Assembly (NCBI GenBank): GCA_036004405.1
Contig: DASYRM010000065.1
Coordinates: 5,674 to 69,673 of the forward strand
Direction: 5' to 3'
Length of the DNA stretch: 64,000 nucleotides
Source of the DNA: Vicinamibacterales bacterium
Lineage (GTDB): Bacteria; Acidobacteriota; Vicinamibacteria; Vicinamibacterales; UBA2999
This document shows positions 1-6,769 of the stretch, one piece after another; the stretch's first letter is position 1; every line of letters starts with the position of its first letter. Below the pieces are notes generated by a model. The model was given only the letters and a program-made list of their open reading frames with translations, did not search any database and was not told the origin of the DNA. Made by a program: the position numbers and the translations under genes.

Positions 1-304
1 CGAAGAACGACTTCACCCCTGTGGTCTGGTTGAGCTTGTAGGCCCGCCACTGATCAGCGTCGTAGCTGAAAAGCGTGACCACCCCCGCGGCAGTGGACTT
101 CTTCATCATGTTCTCGGGGGTGTACTCGAGCGCGACGCCGGGACCGGAGATCAGATTGCCGTTGGCGTCGTAGCCCATGTCGCCCGGAATGCCCGACGCA
201 GTCTTGAGATGAAACGGCTTCCCCGACCAATACGTGTAGGCTCCGGTGGCGGTCGTCTGACGGTTGCCGTGCGCGTCGTAGAGGAACGTCATCGAGTAGG
301 CCAT
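1..304 (-). CDS. RHS/YD-repeat protein fragment, partial (continues past window start); possibly an orphan or frameshifted copy
   Basis: Hand translation of the minus strand from ATG 304..302 gives MAYSMTFLYDAHGNRQTTATGAYTYWSGKPFHLKTASGIPGDMGYDANGNLISGPGVALEYTPENMMKKSTAAGVVTLFSYDADQWRAYKLNQTTGVKSFF with no stop before position 1. It is absent from the track because there is no in-window stop. The YDxxGN and YDxxxxRxxK spacing is the YD-repeat signature. Track ORF 54..356, in another frame, begins MGNETFTDDALDRLASANG, which is also YD-like. This implies a frame change near 298-310. Confidence 0.6.
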   Translation of the reverse strand, partial: MAYSMTFLYDAHGNRQTTATGAYTYWSGKPFHLKTASGIPGDMGYDANGNLISGPGVALEYTPENMMKKSTAAGVVTLFSYDADQWRAYKLNQTTGVKSFF

Positions 305-456
305 TCGCACTTGCAAGCCGATCGAGCGCGTCGTCCGTGAACGTCTCGTTTCCCATGTGCGGGTAGATGATGTTGGCACGATCCAGACGTTGCCGTAGCT
401 ATATGGAGTCATCGAACGGCGCCAAATCATAAGGAGTTGATACAAACCACCATCTG

Positions 457-1083
457 CTATCTGGAGATGGTGAGAGGGAGTCCGTTGCTGGTCGTGAACG
501 CACCGAGTTCATCTGATGATCGCTTGACGTTGACACGCACGAACACTTTCACCGCCATCTCCCCGCCTGGAGCAATCAGCCGACCTGCGCGGCCCTCGAG
601 CTGACAAAGCGTGGCTGCTCGAATGGTGACGCTCGCCCCAGGCGCTAAACGACGGAACGAGCCAGGCTCCCGTCGATCTCCGTAGAGTAACTCCCACGAT
701 CCAAGACGGCCTTCCAGGTTCTGGCCCACCGCGAGTGACAAACCCACGAATGGAAAGACTGTGGGCGATTCGTCCGCCTGTGGTGAGTCAGTCGGAAAGG
801 CGCTCCAAGGGAGAGCGATGGCCCGCTTTCCATCATTTCGTAACTCGACGTCGTACGTGACGAGGTCATCCCACGAGCATGAAGCTGGTTCCAGGCGAAC
901 CAATCGGACTGTTATTGGGCTCTCGTAGACAACTGGTCGTGACGTTTGCGTCGAGCGGGTTCCTGCATCCGCCGACGAAGGTCGAGGAATGAATCGCGTG
1001 TCCAGATCCGGCGCACCAGCCTGAGCGTAGGCGCCAATGGTAACGAGGGTCACGATTGACGCAGCAATCAAGTACCTAACCAT
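457..1083 (-). CDS. secreted hypothetical protein, 208 aa, no family recognised
   Basis: Derived from track ORF 457..1131. The preferred start is the internal ATG at 1083, preceded by AAGGAG (reverse complement of 1090-1095) with a 6-nt spacer. The N-terminus MVRYLIAASIVTLVTIGAYAQA looks like a signal peptide. The gene lies 19 nt downstream of the giant gene stop on the same strand. Confidence 0.6.
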   Translation of the reverse strand: MVRYLIAASIVTLVTIGAYAQAGAPDLDTRFIPRPSSADAGTRSTQTSRPVVYESPITVRLVRLEPASCSWDDLVTYDVELRNDGKRAIALPWSAFPTDSPQADESPTVFPFVGLSLAVGQNLEGRLGSWELLYGDRREPGSFRRLAPGASVTIRAATLCQLEGRAGRLIAPGGEMAVKVFVRVNVKRSSDELGAFTTSNGLPLTISR

Positions 1084-1102
1084 GGACAGCTCCTTCGTGT
1101 CC

Positions 1103-4100
1103 TTAGTGCTGACAGGCGGGGTACTGGGCAAAGTTTACGTATCCCTGGAACACTCCAGCCTCGTTCTGAACCCCGCCATAAGGTCGAATCCCGAGTAGCC
1201 CAGGGTCTGTTGGGCTCTGGTAATGCGCCTTTCTGGACTGAATGGTCGACAGCATTGTTTGGAAGTCTGCCGTAATGTCGGTCGTGAACGTGGGGAGTGA
1301 AGTATTCGGCCCCGTGACCTTCGCCTCCATCGCAGCGCCTGGATCTATCTCGGTGGCGGCGGCCTTGTAGAGCGCGTAGTGGCTCTCGACGTCCCCTGCT
1401 TCGTGCCGCCGAATATTGGTGCGTAGATTTGCCCCGCTAATCCATCCATTTTGGTTGGTGACTGGGTTATAGCTGCCGTCCTGTTGTCTCGAAAACGCGC
1501 AATCTAGGTCGTCGACGTCAGGATGGATCGTCCACCGATAAATCCATCGAAATGGGTTCTGCGGATTCGGTTGCACGACCCAATTGACCGCATGGTTTGG
1601 ACCGTTGTCATTGATCCTTCCAGTGTTGAAGCCGCCGGGATTCTCCAAGCACATCTTGCCCAGGGTTCCCTCCCCGCTTACAGCGGGAACCGGCATGCTC
1701 GGACTTTCTGTGCATCCCCACGTCGTGTTGATCCCGACGGGATCCCCAGCAGAGGGAATCGGAGGCGTAAAGTTTCGCGCGCTCACCGAGACTTGTGCCG
1801 AAGTCGTGCGAGTCTGGCCACTGCGACGCCACGTTACTGTGACGGCACCCGAGTCCACAAGCACGCCTTTCCACGTGGCGGAACTCGGGCTGCTTTGTCG
1901 TGTAATCTTGCCGATGTTGTCGCCTTGGAACTCCCAGCTCACCACGGTGCCCTGTCCTAGCCCGACGAGCCCGATCGAGACGTACTGACCGCGAACGGGA
2001 TTGACAGGTTGCACCATCAGAGCCGGGTTCTCCGCCGTCGGTGCCTGAGGCGGCGCAAACGGATTGAAACAAAAGTTCGTACTCACACACCGATTGCTAT
2101 CGATGCAGGGTGTCGGAAGGATTCGGCAACCAGGAAATAGCGAGAATCCAAGTGGCTGAGCCTGTGTACTCACCGGGCTGCTGTCGGGCGGCGTCAACGT
2201 ACCTCGATTGACATGGAAGCCAATCGGCAGGCTCCCCGTTCCCGTGCTCGTGTCGTACGTCACGAGCCCGTCCTGAGGCGTTATCGACCAGCTGCACCAT
2301 TCTGGAACGAGTAGATTCAAAACTCCATCGTCCGCTGAGGTCGTAGACACTGTGACAGAGAACGGACACTCGCTACTGGCCCCGTCCTGTCCTGCTTGCG
2401 ACACTATGAGAATAGCTCCTTGAACGCGGATCGTGCCGATCCGCGAGTCTGAGTCAGGATTCGGATCGACAGTAAAACTAAGCGTCCCTGACCCACTTCC
2501 ACTCGTCGCCCCGGTCAGGTGGATAAAGCTACTCTCGCTGATCGCAGACCATGCACAGCCGGCGGGAGCGGTGACGTTCGCAACACTGCCATCACCTGAT
2601 ACGGCGGCCAGAAAGCTCGTGGTCGCGGAGGTAGTCAGAACGGTGTAGTTGCATTCCCCACCGCCATCGTTTACGGCCCGCTGCGTTACGACGACTGTAT
2701 AACCCGCGACGGTCAACGACCCACTGCGTCGCACGGCGGCCGTATTGTTCTGGACAACAAACACCATAGTGGCCGAACCGGTGCCGCTACCCACTAGTGC
2801 CTGGACAAAGTTGCTAGCGCTCGAGGCCGCCCAAGGGCAGCCCTCCGGCGCCGTAACCCTGACACCGTAGACTCCATTTCCAGCTCCAACGACAAGAGAG
2901 GTCGAGCTGACGCTGAACGAGCATGATGCAGGTGGAGGCGCTGGGCTGGATGGCGCGACTCCGCTTTGTTCCACGGGCATCTCCGCATTTCCAACGAAGA
3001 TATTGCCGTGGCGAATCTCCTGCCCCGCGTTCTTGTCGACCGTGACGGTAAAGCTCCCTGGTCCTACGCGCAGCGATCCGCCGCTGATTTCGAGCCAGTC
3101 CCGATTCGACCCTACGGTCCACGAGCACCAGGGGTAACCCGGCGTTACCGTCACCGTCGCAGACCCGCCATCTGTTTGGAAGGCAACCGCCCCTGTCGAT
3201 ATGACGTAGTAGCAGGCCTGGCCCCCGGCGCCACTCTGCTGAATCATCACCAACTTGCCCGCGACGCTCGCGTAGGCGATCATCGCCTCGTTGGTCTGGT
3301 TGTAATTGACGTTGAATTGCACCGTCCCTGGACCCGTCACAGGACCGCCGCTGGTCATGGTGGCGTTTCCGGCGATCATCCTTGCGGTCCACGTGCAGCC
3401 CGTCGGTATCGTGACGTCGACCGTCGGATTGCCGTTGGCGCTTGTCATCTCAATGTACCATCGCGACAGCACGGCTTCACACACGGTGTTTGTCGACAAC
3501 GCCGGCGTGAACGTCTCGGTCGTGATCTTGAAGTTGTCGAATGTGGCCGACGGGTCTTGGTTGGCATTCCAGAACAGCCCGTGCCTGGTGAACGCTGAAT
3601 TGTCGTTGACGTCCACTTGGAACAGCGCGCGCCCATCCCAATACGCGCCGATCCCAGTGCCGTTCATCCGCGCTTCGAGGCGGTGGCTCGAGCTATCCAG
3701 CGGCACGACGCCAGCGCTGGTCATGACCGTGAATGTCCCATTCGCGCGCCGGAGCAATTCGACACGCGCACTGGCGAAGTCTCCCGCGTAGCGCAGTACG
3801 AGATAGTTGCTGGCGTCGGCAACGCGAAGTGCGAGGCCGCCGCGCGGGTTGGTATCGCTGGAGCGCAAGTCGACCGCCACGATGCCGTTTGCGGTGCCGC
3901 CATCGATCGTCGCCATCACGTAGGTGCCGCCGCCGGTCGCGGCAGCGACGCCGGCATCGACCGTCGGCGCTCCGCCCTCCCAGAGCACCCACGACGCCCC
4001 GGCGGGGCGCACGTCCGGTACGTGACCGGTCAGCGGTCCAATCGAGCCGTTCGAGGTGAAGCTGTCGAACACGCGGGCCAGGGGCGGCGGGGCCGGAGCG

Positions 4101-6769
4101 GGCGAGATGATGGTCCAGCGGAGCGACCGTGTCGCGGCGAAGACGCCGTCGAACACGCTGAGCGTCGCGTTGTACACCCCGACAGGGGCCGAGAGCGTGC
4201 CGGTGATCGCGCCACTGGAGGTGTTGAGTGATAGCCCGGCCGGCAGCCCGGACGCAGCGAAGGTCAGGGTGGCATTCTGAGGATTCGTCGCGGTGATCGG
4301 GACCGCCGCAATCGTGGTGCCCGTCACGTTCGTCTGGCTCAGCGGACCGGTTATCGTCGGGAACTCGCCCGGCACCCGCACTTCGAAGTTGTCGAAGGTG
4401 ACGGCCGGATCTTCGGAGTTGAACACGACGCCTTGCTTGGTGGCGGTCTGCTGGAACGTCGATGTCGTGGTCAGCGTGATGACGCCGTCCACGTAGGCGG
4501 CAATCTGTGTCCCGATCGCGCGCAGTTCGAGGTGGTACTTCTGACCGGTCACGAAGCCGATCGACGTCCGGGTCAGAATGGTGCGGGTGCCATTCTGCAC
4601 ACGGCCGAGAAGCAGATCCCAGCCATCAACGGACGCCTCCAGGTAGTTACCTCCGGGCGCTGCCCGCGCGATCAGGCCTCCGATGCGCAGGTCTCCGCCA
4701 ATGAAGTCTGCGCTGATCACGACGTCCGAGCGGCCGCTTTCGATGGCCCACGGTTGGTGACCGGTACCGGGCGTCGCCAACTCTGTCCGGTTGCCCTGGA
4801 TGCGAGCCGACGAGCTGCCGGTCCCGAAATACGCCCACGCCGCGCCCGAGGGCTTCAGCTCCACGGCATGGCTCTGAAGCATCGTGCCGTTGGCCGCCGT
4901 GAACGTGTCCCAGACGACGGCCCACGACAGCGCCGGCGTGACCGTCCACGTAAAGTCTTTGATCGTCGTCGAAATCCCGTCGAACACGCTGACCGACACG
5001 GGATAGGTGCCGAGCGCCCCTGCGGCAATCGTTCCGCTGATCAGGCCGGTACTCGAATTCAGGCTCAGGCCCGGAGGCAGCCCGGTCGCCGAATACGTCA
5101 AGGGCTGCCCCTCGACGTCGCTGGCCTGGACCTGCAGCGAAATCACGGAACCCACCGGGTGGGCCTGGTTGGAGATCGTCATAACCGTGGGCGCGTTGTT
5201 CGTCAGCGCCACAACCCAGTTGAACTGGCGCAGCGTCGACAAGGTCCCGTCCGAGACCGTCACGGTGACATTCCATCCGCCTGTCGCGCCGGTCAGCGTT
5301 CCGGAAATCACGCCTGTCGACGAGTTGACGCTCAAGCCAGGAGGCAAGCCGGTAGCCGAGTAAGTGAGCATTTGCGCCTCGGGATCAGTCGCCGTGACCG
5401 GCACTGACACCGTCGTGCTCACGAGGCTGAACTGATTGCTCGGGCCCGAGACCACGGGGGCTTGGTTTGGCCCAATCACGACGAAGTTGTCGAACTGGCG
5501 GGCGTAGTCGTCCGAATGAAACGCGATTCCGTGCTTCGTTGCGGTCTGCAGGTACGTGCTCGTGGTGGTGAGCTTCAGCAGCCCGTTGAGATAGGCGGTG
5601 ATTTGGCTCCCATTGGTACGTGCCTCGATTCGATAGGTCTGGCCATTGACGATGCCGGCAGACACCCGCGTCAAGACCGTTCGATCTCCGTTCACCCACT
5701 TGTCGATGATCAGGTCGAACCCGTCGACACTGAGGCCAAGGTAGTTGCCGCCAGACGTAGCGCGGAAGACAAGCCCGCCAATTCGACCGGATCCACCCAT
5801 GAAGTCGGCAGCAACGGTGACATCCGACTGTCCCGACTCAATCGCCCACGGCTGGTGGCCGTTCCCGGGGGTCGACAACTCGGCTCGGTTACCTTGCGTG
5901 CGCGCCCCTGAAGTGCCCAGCCCGATGTAGGTCCACGACGCGCCCGCGGGTTTGACCTCCGGGAGGTGCGAACCGATCGACGTCTGATTAATGCCAGTGA
6001 AGGTATCCCATACGACCGCGCCGGCCGGAGTCGGACGACGCGACACCACAAAGTTATCAAACTGGGTCGCGGGCGCGCTGCTATGCCACAGCAACCCGGA
6101 TCCACTCGCGGTGTCGTAGTCGGTAACCGTGGCCGAGAAGCGCACAATCCCGTCTAACACCGCGTCTATCGCGCTGCCAACGTATCGTGCCTCGATTCTG
6201 TGCACCGTATTCGGTGCGACGGGCGGAACGGAGACCGACAGGAGGGGCTGGTAGTTGCCAGCCACGCGGCGAAACAGGCCCAACTGCCCTGATGCCGCCG
6301 ACCCCCAGTAGACGAGCAGCAAGTGCGCATTCGCGTCCACAGCCCGAAACACGACGCCGCCGTACACGTCGGCCGTGGACGATACGAGATCCGCACTGGT
6401 AGATCCGTCAGCGAGACCGGACGCAATCGTTGCGAGCGTGAAGCCGTTCGTCGAATTTGTTGCGACACGGTTGCCCTCTAATGTTTCCGCACCACCCTCA
6501 CGATGCGCCCACGCAGCTCCAGTGGGTCCGACATCCGGAGCATGCGAGGTCAGGACCGCTCCATTCGGACCCGTGAACGTGTCCCACACCACGGCGCCGA
6601 TCGGCGCTTGCGCGTAGGCACCACCGGTGCCACCGAACAGAAGCAGCGCGACCCCACGAATCGCCAGACCGAAGGCCCTTCGGCTCTTGGAACAAAGTCT
6701 CCTGGATGGAGGCACTTCTTCTACCAACCTCGCGACTCCTCTGCTTTGCGAGCGTGACGACCGTACCAA
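1103..6769 (-). CDS. giant secreted multi-domain protein (1,888 aa): 4 LamG/ConA-like + 3 He_PIG Ig-like + 5 BACON-like modules + unknown C-terminal region
   Basis: Single uninterrupted ORF. The signal-like N-terminus is RRAFGLAIRGVALLLFGGTGGAYAQA. Four ~185-aa blocks start (A/W)(V/R)V(W/F)D(T/S)FT and end FDNF(V/E/K). Three blocks contain (Y/F)(S/A)A(T/S)GLP(P/A)GLS.N(S/T)S(T/S)G.I(S/T)GT. Five Cys-framed blocks contain C..(S/T)V...(G/W)C.W(T/A/S). The track start at 6769 is a TTG. Alternative starts are TTG 6727 (AGAGGAG 8 nt upstream) and GTG 6715. Confidence 0.85.
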   Translation of the reverse strand: MVRSSRSQSRGVARLVEEVPPSRRLCSKSRRAFGLAIRGVALLLFGGTGGAYAQAPIGAVVWDTFTGPNGAVLTSHAPDVGPTGAAWAHREGGAETLEGNRVATNSTNGFTLATIASGLADGSTSADLVSSTADVYGGVVFRAVDANAHLLLVYWGSAASGQLGLFRRVAGNYQPLLSVSVPPVAPNTVHRIEARYVGSAIDAVLDGIVRFSATVTDYDTASGSGLLWHSSAPATQFDNFVVSRRPTPAGAVVWDTFTGINQTSIGSHLPEVKPAGASWTYIGLGTSGARTQGNRAELSTPGNGHQPWAIESGQSDVTVAADFMGGSGRIGGLVFRATSGGNYLGLSVDGFDLIIDKWVNGDRTVLTRVSAGIVNGQTYRIEARTNGSQITAYLNGLLKLTTTSTYLQTATKHGIAFHSDDYARQFDNFVVIGPNQAPVVSGPSNQFSLVSTTVSVPVTATDPEAQMLTYSATGLPPGLSVNSSTGVISGTLTGATGGWNVTVTVSDGTLSTLRQFNWVVALTNNAPTVMTISNQAHPVGSVISLQVQASDVEGQPLTYSATGLPPGLSLNSSTGLISGTIAAGALGTYPVSVSVFDGISTTIKDFTWTVTPALSWAVVWDTFTAANGTMLQSHAVELKPSGAAWAYFGTGSSSARIQGNRTELATPGTGHQPWAIESGRSDVVISADFIGGDLRIGGLIARAAPGGNYLEASVDGWDLLLGRVQNGTRTILTRTSIGFVTGQKYHLELRAIGTQIAAYVDGVITLTTTSTFQQTATKQGVVFNSEDPAVTFDNFEVRVPGEFPTITGPLSQTNVTGTTIAAVPITATNPQNATLTFAASGLPAGLSLNTSSGAITGTLSAPVGVYNATLSVFDGVFAATRSLRWTIISPAPAPPPLARVFDSFTSNGSIGPLTGHVPDVRPAGASWVLWEGGAPTVDAGVAAATGGGTYVMATIDGGTANGIVAVDLRSSDTNPRGGLALRVADASNYLVLRYAGDFASARVELLRRANGTFTVMTSAGVVPLDSSSHRLEARMNGTGIGAYWDGRALFQVDVNDNSAFTRHGLFWNANQDPSATFDNFKITTETFTPALSTNTVCEAVLSRWYIEMTSANGNPTVDVTIPTGCTWTARMIAGNATMTSGGPVTGPGTVQFNVNYNQTNEAMIAYASVAGKLVMIQQSGAGGQACYYVISTGAVAFQTDGGSATVTVTPGYPWCSWTVGSNRDWLEISGGSLRVGPGSFTVTVDKNAGQEIRHGNIFVGNAEMPVEQSGVAPSSPAPPPASCSFSVSSTSLVVGAGNGVYGVRVTAPEGCPWAASSASNFVQALVGSGTGSATMVFVVQNNTAAVRRSGSLTVAGYTVVVTQRAVNDGGGECNYTVLTTSATTSFLAAVSGDGSVANVTAPAGCAWSAISESSFIHLTGATSGSGSGTLSFTVDPNPDSDSRIGTIRVQGAILIVSQAGQDGASSECPFSVTVSTTSADDGVLNLLVPEWCSWSITPQDGLVTYDTSTGTGSLPIGFHVNRGTLTPPDSSPVSTQAQPLGFSLFPGCRILPTPCIDSNRCVSTNFCFNPFAPPQAPTAENPALMVQPVNPVRGQYVSIGLVGLGQGTVVSWEFQGDNIGKITRQSSPSSATWKGVLVDSGAVTVTWRRSGQTRTTSAQVSVSARNFTPPIPSAGDPVGINTTWGCTESPSMPVPAVSGEGTLGKMCLENPGGFNTGRINDNGPNHAVNWVVQPNPQNPFRWIYRWTIHPDVDDLDCAFSRQQDGSYNPVTNQNGWISGANLRTNIRRHEAGDVESHYALYKAAATEIDPGAAMEAKVTGPNTSLPTFTTDITADFQTMLSTIQSRKAHYQSPTDPGLLGIRPYGGVQNEAGVFQGYVNFAQYPACQH

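Follow-up and report, generated by a model that had tools for sequence, protein, structure and literature searches.

In current structural models of rearrangement hotspot (Rhs) proteins, the toxin is folded inside a cocoon of tyrosine-aspartate (YD) repeats that belongs to the same polypeptide, or inside that of a TcB-TcC fusion. Orphan rhs modules, as they occur in E. coli, Salmonella and Dickeya, keep the 3' end of the core (PxxxxDPxGL), the toxin tip and the immunity gene, and recombination can reactivate them. Effectors acting outside the cytoplasm are classically paired with periplasmic immunity proteins, as in the Tse1/Tsi1 and Tse3/Tsi3 pairs of type VI secretion systems (T6SS). Polymorphic toxins combine a conserved trunk with a swappable C-terminal domain and with downstream immunity genes (Zhang et al. 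2012, PMC3482391). Here we analyse a YD-repeat segment at the left end of a 64,000-nucleotide (nt) stretch of DNA from a Vicinamibacterales bacterium (contig DASYRM010000065.1), hereafter the window. The segment lies on the minus strand, downstream of the genes for a giant secreted protein and for an exported protein of 208 amino acids (aa). We consider it probable, at roughly 70%, that this segment is the relic of a native gene for a core-less YD shell, truncated by the import of a foreign block.

The fragment alone scored just below the curated cut-offs for YD repeats, with 21.9 vs 22 bits for Pfam RHS_repeat (PF05593) and 15.5 vs 15.8 bits for TIGR01643. Its assignment as YD sequence is based on homology, namely on the 87% identity of its product to the tail encoded in locus L037 and on the RHS_repeat matches of the homologous proteins (E = 1e-27 to 1e-43), and the similarity is well above chance (tblastn E = 3e-57 to L037). 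Relatives were drawn from scans of GTDB genomes and JGI metagenomes and from an exhaustive profile search. The nearest ones are the C-termini of long YD open reading frames (ORFs) that finish with the same end residues, in L037 (87% aa identity) and L038 (65%), and an identical end point was observed in L039, L041 and L048, whose tails are 43-48% identical to the remnant. The proteins of these three loci comprise 1151, 1159 and 1168 aa, respectively, and those of L037 and L038, both truncated by contig ends, at least 731 and at least 1118 aa. The profile search gave 107 matches at E <= 1e-30, in which the module usually occupies residues ~950-1160 of proteins of ~1,100-1,170 aa. More than 20 representative clusters of 1,090-1,175 aa carry it at their C-terminus, and proteins of 1,450-2,500 aa continue after it with PPC-like extensions at the C-terminus. 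In one short homologue, P0131 (174 aa), IPT/TIG-like sequence passes straight into the final ~120 residues of a YD tail with no other difference from P0107 (196 aa). Its structure suggests a separate deletion that joined the 3' end of a shell gene to a trunk gene, a parallel to the rearrangement proposed for the window.

Intact shell proteins show a signal peptide, DUF6531 and a strong RHS_repeat match, and finish with the family ending ...RDY[IV]YAGxR[LV]xxV plus 7-9 aa and the stop, which is also present in the window remnant. As compared with the ~1,150 residues of this family, the remnant comprises ~540 nt or ~178 codons, 143 of them in frame, and its open ORF of 145 aa corresponds to the last ~143 residues of the shell proteins. 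Full length, signal peptide and the N-terminal DUF6531 region are all missing from the window copy, which therefore lacks the long repeat array and N-terminal plug sufficient for a closed shell. An original candidate, a family of mini-YD proteins based on homologues of 154-170 aa from a word-indexed search, was weakened by the finding that the closer relatives are long proteins with the same end, and is kept as a rival only.

The YD ORF ends with ...GRLVAVQTASNMPAR*, before any core: it has no NCBIfam core match, no DPxG motif was found in the 64 kb, and a custom hidden Markov model of the core detected none in either the window or L007, a locus of 20 kb (best E = 6.7). TIGR03696 (Rhs_assc_core) was also not found in the intact short-shell members. 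No toxin domain follows the end of the YD shell, the next gene (gp19) is not an immunity gene, and the window holds no other YD gene. Since intact members end at the same residue without Rhs core or toxin, the remnant is not an orphan toxin cassette. Its repeats are of the same type as those of the RhsA, Tse5 and TcB-TcC cocoons (PMC8765631, PMC8636562), and its last strand, ...DYIYAGxRLxA, is equivalent to the strand located before the YYHxDxxGS core of canonical Rhs proteins (L015, L018). Unlike these, the shell of the remnant's family stops before the core, and core and toxin are encoded separately with their own signal peptide or are fused to a trunk. The division also differs from that of TcB/TcC, which falls in the middle of the shell, whereas in this family it falls at the boundary between shell and core.

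Homology to L037 and L038 begins abruptly at about window 399-408; upstream of ~406 there is no homology to either locus, and the 208-aa gene is found instead. In comparison with L037, blastn gave 82% identity over 526 nt, from about window 399 to the stop codon, with exactly two gaps (-1 and -2). Nucleotide alignment with the intact homologue placed a 1-nt deletion at ~375 (372-378) and a 2-nt deletion at 299-301; L038 lacks both gaps, indicating that the deletions arose in the window lineage. On the minus strand, the remnant thus starts with a first stub (376..406) reading YSYGNVWIV, for YGYDNVGNV in the intact homologue, up to the 1-nt deletion. A second stub in another frame (300..374, NIIYPHMGNETFTDDALDRLASANG) includes ATG 356 and ends at the 2-nt deletion, with degraded YD motifs (TFTYD changed to TFTDD). 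The open remnant follows, a 145-aa ORF from ATG 304 that covers 1..304 plus 133 nt past the window edge. An upstream frame junction at "YSYGNV|LDRAN" was also considered and dropped, the nucleotide alignment putting the junction at about window 375. The initial annotation had described a frame-broken YD sequence without N-terminal domain, whose first frame opens after the TAG at 401-399 and reads MGNETFTDDALDRLASANG from ATG 356, and this was borne out, with the homology to L037 and L038 starting at ~406. The frame change that it had placed near 298-310 is real, being the 2-nt deletion (equivalent to a +1 shift), and the second, 1-nt deletion had escaped it.

The frame from ATG 304, (M)AYSMTFLYDAHGNRQTT... 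/ MAYSMTFLYDAHGNRQTT..., is open to the window edge. The leftward extension from which a full-length RHS gene or a C-terminal tip might have emerged yielded neither, as the ORF stops 133 nt further on (L001 11217; also covered by L007) without a tip, its C-terminus being ...DYIYAGGRLVAVQTASNMPAR / ...RDYIYAGGRLVAVQTASNMPAR. Depending on the start, its product would have 145 aa (ATG 304), 181 aa (ATG 412) or 192 aa (TTG 445), and a Shine-Dalgarno sequence is absent before all three candidate starts. This product (P0008) is listed at NCBI as a hypothetical protein of a Vicinamibacterales metagenome-assembled genome. A look-up of exact proteins led to three Logan contigs, and a look-up of the YD ORF to two JGI contigs, including Ga0376077_0000139 (221,896 bp). 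Window positions 1-1200 were identical across the overlap in these five assemblies, which derive from different samples. These data indicate that the frame breaks are genuine and not an artefact of reads or assembly.

The G+C content at third codon positions (GC3) was about 0.90 in the neighbouring genes for LepA, signal peptidase, a major facilitator superfamily (MFS) protein and an AlkZ-related protein, 0.93 in gp19 and 0.84 in the YD tail. On the other side of the spacer (407..456, minus strand), which separates the stop of the 208-aa gene from the point where YD homology begins, GC3 was 0.60 in the 208-aa gene, 0.66 in the C-terminal module of the giant, 0.64 in its linker and 0.70-0.85 in the rest of the giant. 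The contrast of this 0.60-0.66 block with the native value of ~0.90 and with the YD tail, together with the limit of homology, places the junction between foreign and native DNA at window 406-457. Along the giant itself, GC3 is a mosaic of 0.72, 0.85, 0.70, 0.64 and 0.66 from N- to C-terminus.

In the reconstruction that we favour, the native ancestor would have been a gene for a Sec-exported, core-less YD-repeat shell protein of ~1,150 aa, located behind a trunk-core-tip gene as in intact relatives. A foreign block, comprising at least the 3' part of the giant gene with its Ig-like domain and ~225-aa module plus the 208-aa gene, would then have recombined into the locus. It would have replaced the core-tip and the first ~970 shell codons (the 5' ~2.9 kb), with its right-hand junction at window 406-457. 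Two small deletions, of 1 and 2 nt, would subsequently have broken the frame within the first ~100 nt of the remnant.

The giant gene (1103..6769, minus strand, TAA at 1105-1103) encodes 1888 aa from TTG 6769, or 1874 aa according to gene callers. Its product contains LamG-like/DUF1080-like modules, He_PIG (2.4e-31) and BACON (4.2e-10) domains; we count four of the LamG/DUF1080-like modules (VVWDTFT...FDNF), paired He_PIG domains and at least five BACON-like CxW modules. The trunk encoded in L048 has the same architecture at 28-36% identity, and the similarity ends at the last BACON domain (~residue 1494), a limit that coincides with the start of the Rhs core in L048. Beyond it, the C-terminal module of the giant (residues 1584-1888; 1106..2020, minus strand) consists of an Ig-like domain of ~80 aa and a domain of ~225 aa with four conserved cysteines and the motif RRHEAGxVxSHYA. 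A search of 5.8 billion proteins returned a single homologue of this module, P0159 (468 aa), in which residues 174-466 are 46% identical to residues 1584-1886 of the giant; there was no sequence match in Pfam, NCBIfam or PDB.

The same C-terminal module is therefore borne by a 1888-aa giant and by a 468-aa protein. Trunks are likewise shared, since a giant-type trunk bears an Rhs core and tip in L048 and the P0159 trunk bears another C-terminus in L004, where the N-terminal trunk recurs at 68-79% identity and a different C-terminus follows the poly-proline linker. The trunk gene of L004 (6974-8883; P0159 gene, L005 8350-9756) appears as two ORFs, for which a long-read frameshift may be responsible; the C-terminal domains of the two trunks are unrelated. 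Small genes for a signal-peptide protein and a HEAT-repeat protein lie in L004 between the trunk gene and a gene of the 208-aa family. As in polymorphic toxins, a conserved trunk (LamG-like/He_PIG/BACON or that of P0159) is thus followed, after a proline-rich linker, by a variable C-terminus, and a small gene with stand-alone homologues elsewhere comes immediately after the module. Unlike polymorphic toxins, the module matches no described toxin family, the partner is Sec-exported, and the pair was found in two lineages only. By analogy, and within this thin sampling, the succession of trunk, variable C-terminal module and small downstream gene would correspond to the polymorphic toxin pattern.

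The 208-aa gene (457..1083, minus strand, TAG at 459-457) starts at ATG 1083, 19 nt past the stop of the giant gene and six nt after the Shine-Dalgarno sequence AAGGAG (1090..1095), which was read directly in the sequence; the coordinates given already in the initial annotation hold. The same applies to the signal peptide and to the lack of a recognisable family: residues 1-20 (window 1083-1024) show a predicted Sec-type n/h/c layout with MVR, a hydrophobic stretch and AYA|QA, and no match was found in Pfam or NCBIfam. AlphaFold2 modelled a helix at residues 7-17, a disordered linker and an all-beta domain of ~150 aa with a core pLDDT (predicted local distance difference test) of ~75-90; fold searches gave generic Fn3/Ig-like matches only, and the alignment of the family gave nothing meaningful against PDB sequences (Lactadherin, E = 0.45). 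Six homologues with 37-67% identity bring the family to 7 members, in which the signal peptide, a PDLDTRF motif, the disordered linker and two invariant cysteines in the ~150-aa domain are conserved. A possible identity of this family with a ~150-aa secreted protein encoded after intact short YD genes was rejected (hhalign probability 0.05).

In L005/L006, both from one ENA sample, a homologue of the 208-aa gene lies ~24 nt after the P0159 gene, with identities to the window pair of 46% for the module and 58% for the small protein. In L004 a 37%-identical gene of the family is located 2 kb downstream of the P0159-type trunk. The neighbourhoods of the homologues, to which the initial annotation had pointed, thus repeat the adjacency to the C-terminal module in L005/L006 and show no linkage of the family to YD genes in any other locus. 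Small genes accompany the module in the window and in L005/L006, and homologues without the module occur in L004 and L070. Altogether, these data indicate that the cassette-like unit is formed by the C-terminal ~300 aa of the giant and the 208-aa gene, not by the YD piece, and that the 208-aa product is an exported, disulfide-containing beta-sandwich protein that travels with the C-terminal module of the giant.

From this linkage, the 208-aa protein most plausibly binds the C-terminal module as a periplasmic immunity protein, inhibitor or accessory partner. The secretion of the partner had been regarded as a misfit with an immunity role, and this is not a real objection, given that effectors acting outside the cytoplasm have periplasmic immunity proteins. 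Like Tsi1, Tsi3 and Tli, the 208-aa protein is small, bears a signal peptide, is mostly beta and is encoded right after an effector-like domain; unlike them, it shows no sequence or specific fold relationship to these proteins, and no T6SS is present. Alternatively, this small protein could act on its own in the periplasm or at the surface, functionally unrelated to the giant, with co-transfer alone accounting for the adjacency, which we regard as possible but not likely. The homologue P0003 (34 member sequences) follows the end of an unrelated pgeF/YfiH-like gene, the homologue in L004 lies two genes away from a trunk with a different C-terminus, and the beta-sandwich fold is generic. Against such independence, two lineages, now at 46-58% aa identity, have both retained the spacing of 19-24 nt after the same rare module. 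Furthermore, both the module and the 208-aa protein carry conserved cysteines, as expected for exported proteins, and stand-alone copies are expected for genes of the immunity type.

Several observations weigh against a decayed relic left by the import of an effector-like block. A strain that still shows the arrangement before the insertion was not found, and the replacement is hence deduced from compositional differences and from synteny in distant relatives. The downstream flank of L037 differs from that of the window, and for this reason L037 may be a paralogue and not the orthologous locus. As regards the imported pair, the link between the 208-aa protein and the module rests on two independent lineages, a homologue in L070 follows an unrelated housekeeping gene, no recognisable toxin fold was found in the C-terminal domain of the giant, and the AlphaFold2 model of the module, built on a two-sequence alignment, reached a pLDDT of 38.5 and was confident for the Ig part only. 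As regards decay, dN/dS (nonsynonymous to synonymous substitution rates) in comparison with L037 was 0.10 over the 143 open codons (dS 0.76), and reached 0.16 in the 24-codon stretch delimited by the indels. With L038 as outgroup, private replacements of the window lineage amounted to 4/142 in the open part vs 7/34 in the stubs (Fisher p = 0.001), the stub changes including lost YD-motif residues, and no such contrast was observed on the L037 branch. Finally, other metagenomes repeatedly contain short forms that start with Met and have a similar length.

The lack of relaxation in the open part and the recurrence of short forms suggest that the open YD tail may still be selected. The 145-aa ORF would then persist as a mini YD-tail protein, for instance as a docking piece or chaperone for core-tip proteins, with only the ~100-nt stub decaying; we hold this for an unlikely outcome that nevertheless deserves consideration. 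Besides the replacement pattern and the low dN/dS, this alternative is favoured by the native-like GC3 of the tail, by short forms with in-frame upstream stops or non-YD N-termini (P0009, P0010, P0011/L010, P0013, P0031, P0053, P0062 and P0083) and by the fusion of a TIG domain to a YD tail in P0131. On the other hand, ATG 304 has neither a Shine-Dalgarno sequence nor any other start signal in front of it, in contrast to the two neighbouring genes, about six YD hairpins cannot form a cocoon, and there is no core-tip gene within 64 kb. Moreover, many of the short database entries, the DNA context of which was seen for one, are possibly contig-edge or frameshift artefacts. The low dN/dS is possibly a legacy of recent truncation, and the replacement counts are small and refer to a partition chosen after the indels had been seen. 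Whether relic, as we favour, or mini-protein, the origin of the YD tail is a truncated shell gene.

We consider it very improbable that the YD piece is an RHS toxin module, displaced or orphaned downstream of the gene for a large secreted toxin and accompanied by the 208-aa protein in the role of immunity-like partner. The layout resembles rhs loci with orphan fragments, and like the enterobacterial orphan rhs C-terminal modules the window contains a 5'-truncated YD piece beside the gene of a large secreted protein after recombination, decayed by small indels. Unlike these modules, the remnant lacks core, tip and immunity gene and derives from a shell-only gene: the ORF ends before the core, TIGR03696 and DPxG are absent from the 64 kb, the downstream gene encodes a tube protein, and intact homologues also lack tips. 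As for the 208-aa gene, it is located upstream of the fragment, and in no other locus was it linked to YD genes. The polymorphic-toxin-like layout proposed in the initial annotation accordingly stands for the C-terminal module and the 208-aa gene and fails for the YD piece, which taken alone is an ordinary gene relic; its reading as an orphan toxin cassette should be dropped. Still less credible is an artefact in which a normal RHS gene of full length was given a wrong start and spurious indels, an explanation for which the a priori frequency of homopolymer errors is the only argument, in view of the identical sequence in three Logan and two JGI assemblies and of the conserved 208-aa gene, not YD sequence, upstream of ~406.

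The relatives of the relic show how shell and core are distributed in intact loci. Of the 12 related loci that are informative, 11 have a gene for the YD cocoon that does not include a core. Seven of them (L011-13, L043 and L045-47) contain a long YD shell gene and then a separate gene for 297-335 aa with its own Shine-Dalgarno sequence (L011 5994-6998, L012 10015-10995, L013 5884-6837, L043 7795-8688, L045 7754-8644, L046 2559-3539 and L047 8119-9120). This core-tip gene starts 19-63 nt after the shell stop in six of the seven loci and 832 nt after it in L011. Its products start with a signal peptide and the sequence YYHTDAIGSVRM..., and continue with a core that exceeds the TIGR03696 cut-off, the motif NNPLRxVDPxG and a tip that is variable; Tox-REase-7, HNH and DUF6765 occur among the tips. 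The last strand of the shells is the one after which canonical Rhs proteins pass into the core.

In L048, L039 and L040, a He_PIG/BACON/TIG trunk carrying an Rhs core and a tip of ~200 aa, without YD repeats (L048 3-2684, L039 27-2690, L040 3-1250), is encoded directly upstream of the short YD shell gene. L049 has a more distant arrangement, with the core ~2.4 kb upstream of the shell gene. These trunk-borne cores were above the TIGR03696 cut-off in L048, L039 and L040, and in L049 the detection was by tblastn only. In L041 and L048, a secreted protein of ~150 aa is encoded after the shell, and the two copies are 58% identical to each other.

Phrase searching of the literature, a limited search that is no proof of novelty, retrieved no description of a split between Rhs shell and core. 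The tracing of relatives thus exposes loci in which, as judged from their sequences, shell and core-toxin would be separate and individually exported products, and the novelty lies mainly there; with such a split, one would have to ask whether encapsulation follows export at all and, if so, how. The window locus, for its part, documents a rearrangement junction with both partners identifiable among very large secreted proteins of uncultured soil Acidobacteriota, and nominates a new C-terminal module and its exported partner as a candidate effector/immunity pair. It is conceivable, albeit rather improbable as a whole, that the window represents a cassette replacement within a so far undescribed split-Rhs system of soil Acidobacteriota with tips of the nuclease type, in which the YD tail, seemingly under continued constraint, would serve as docking piece or conserved recombination arm and the C-terminal module and the 208-aa protein would constitute a new extracytoplasmic effector/immunity pair that took the place of core-tip and shell.

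Downstream of the YD remnant, and on the same strand, the gp19 gene begins 22 nt past the YD stop, 155-595 nt beyond the left edge of the window (L001 11240-11680, corresponding to L007 10461-10901). It is complete and encodes 146 aa with a match to Phage_T4_gp19 (PF06841, 1.7e-40). The nearest solved structures are inner tubes of contractile injection systems (CIS), which it matches over the full length: All3324 of the thylakoid CIS, AlgoCIS, Pvc1 and Afp1 (PDB phmmer 1.9e-23 to 7b5h). Unlike CIS tube genes, this gene stands alone. No sheath, baseplate or spike genes were found within 10 kb downstream of it, and no second gp19/tube gene in the 64-kb window or in the related YD loci. Convergent genes for the AlkZ-related protein, the MFS protein, LepA and signal peptidase follow beyond it. 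The possibility that gp19 marks the start of an extracellular CIS cluster just outside the window was rejected, since the 221-kb contig carries housekeeping genes there. Promoter and terminator scans from the giant gene to gp19 gave no hits. The region where gp19 and the AlkZ-related gene converge contains two perfect hairpins rich in G+C, GGGCACATCTAAAGATGTGCCC and GGGCCGCCTGAAGGCGGCCC, just after gp19 (L007 10903-10960). The independent Logan contigs L001 and L003 both break directly after these hairpins, which hints at a repeated element or a drop in coverage.

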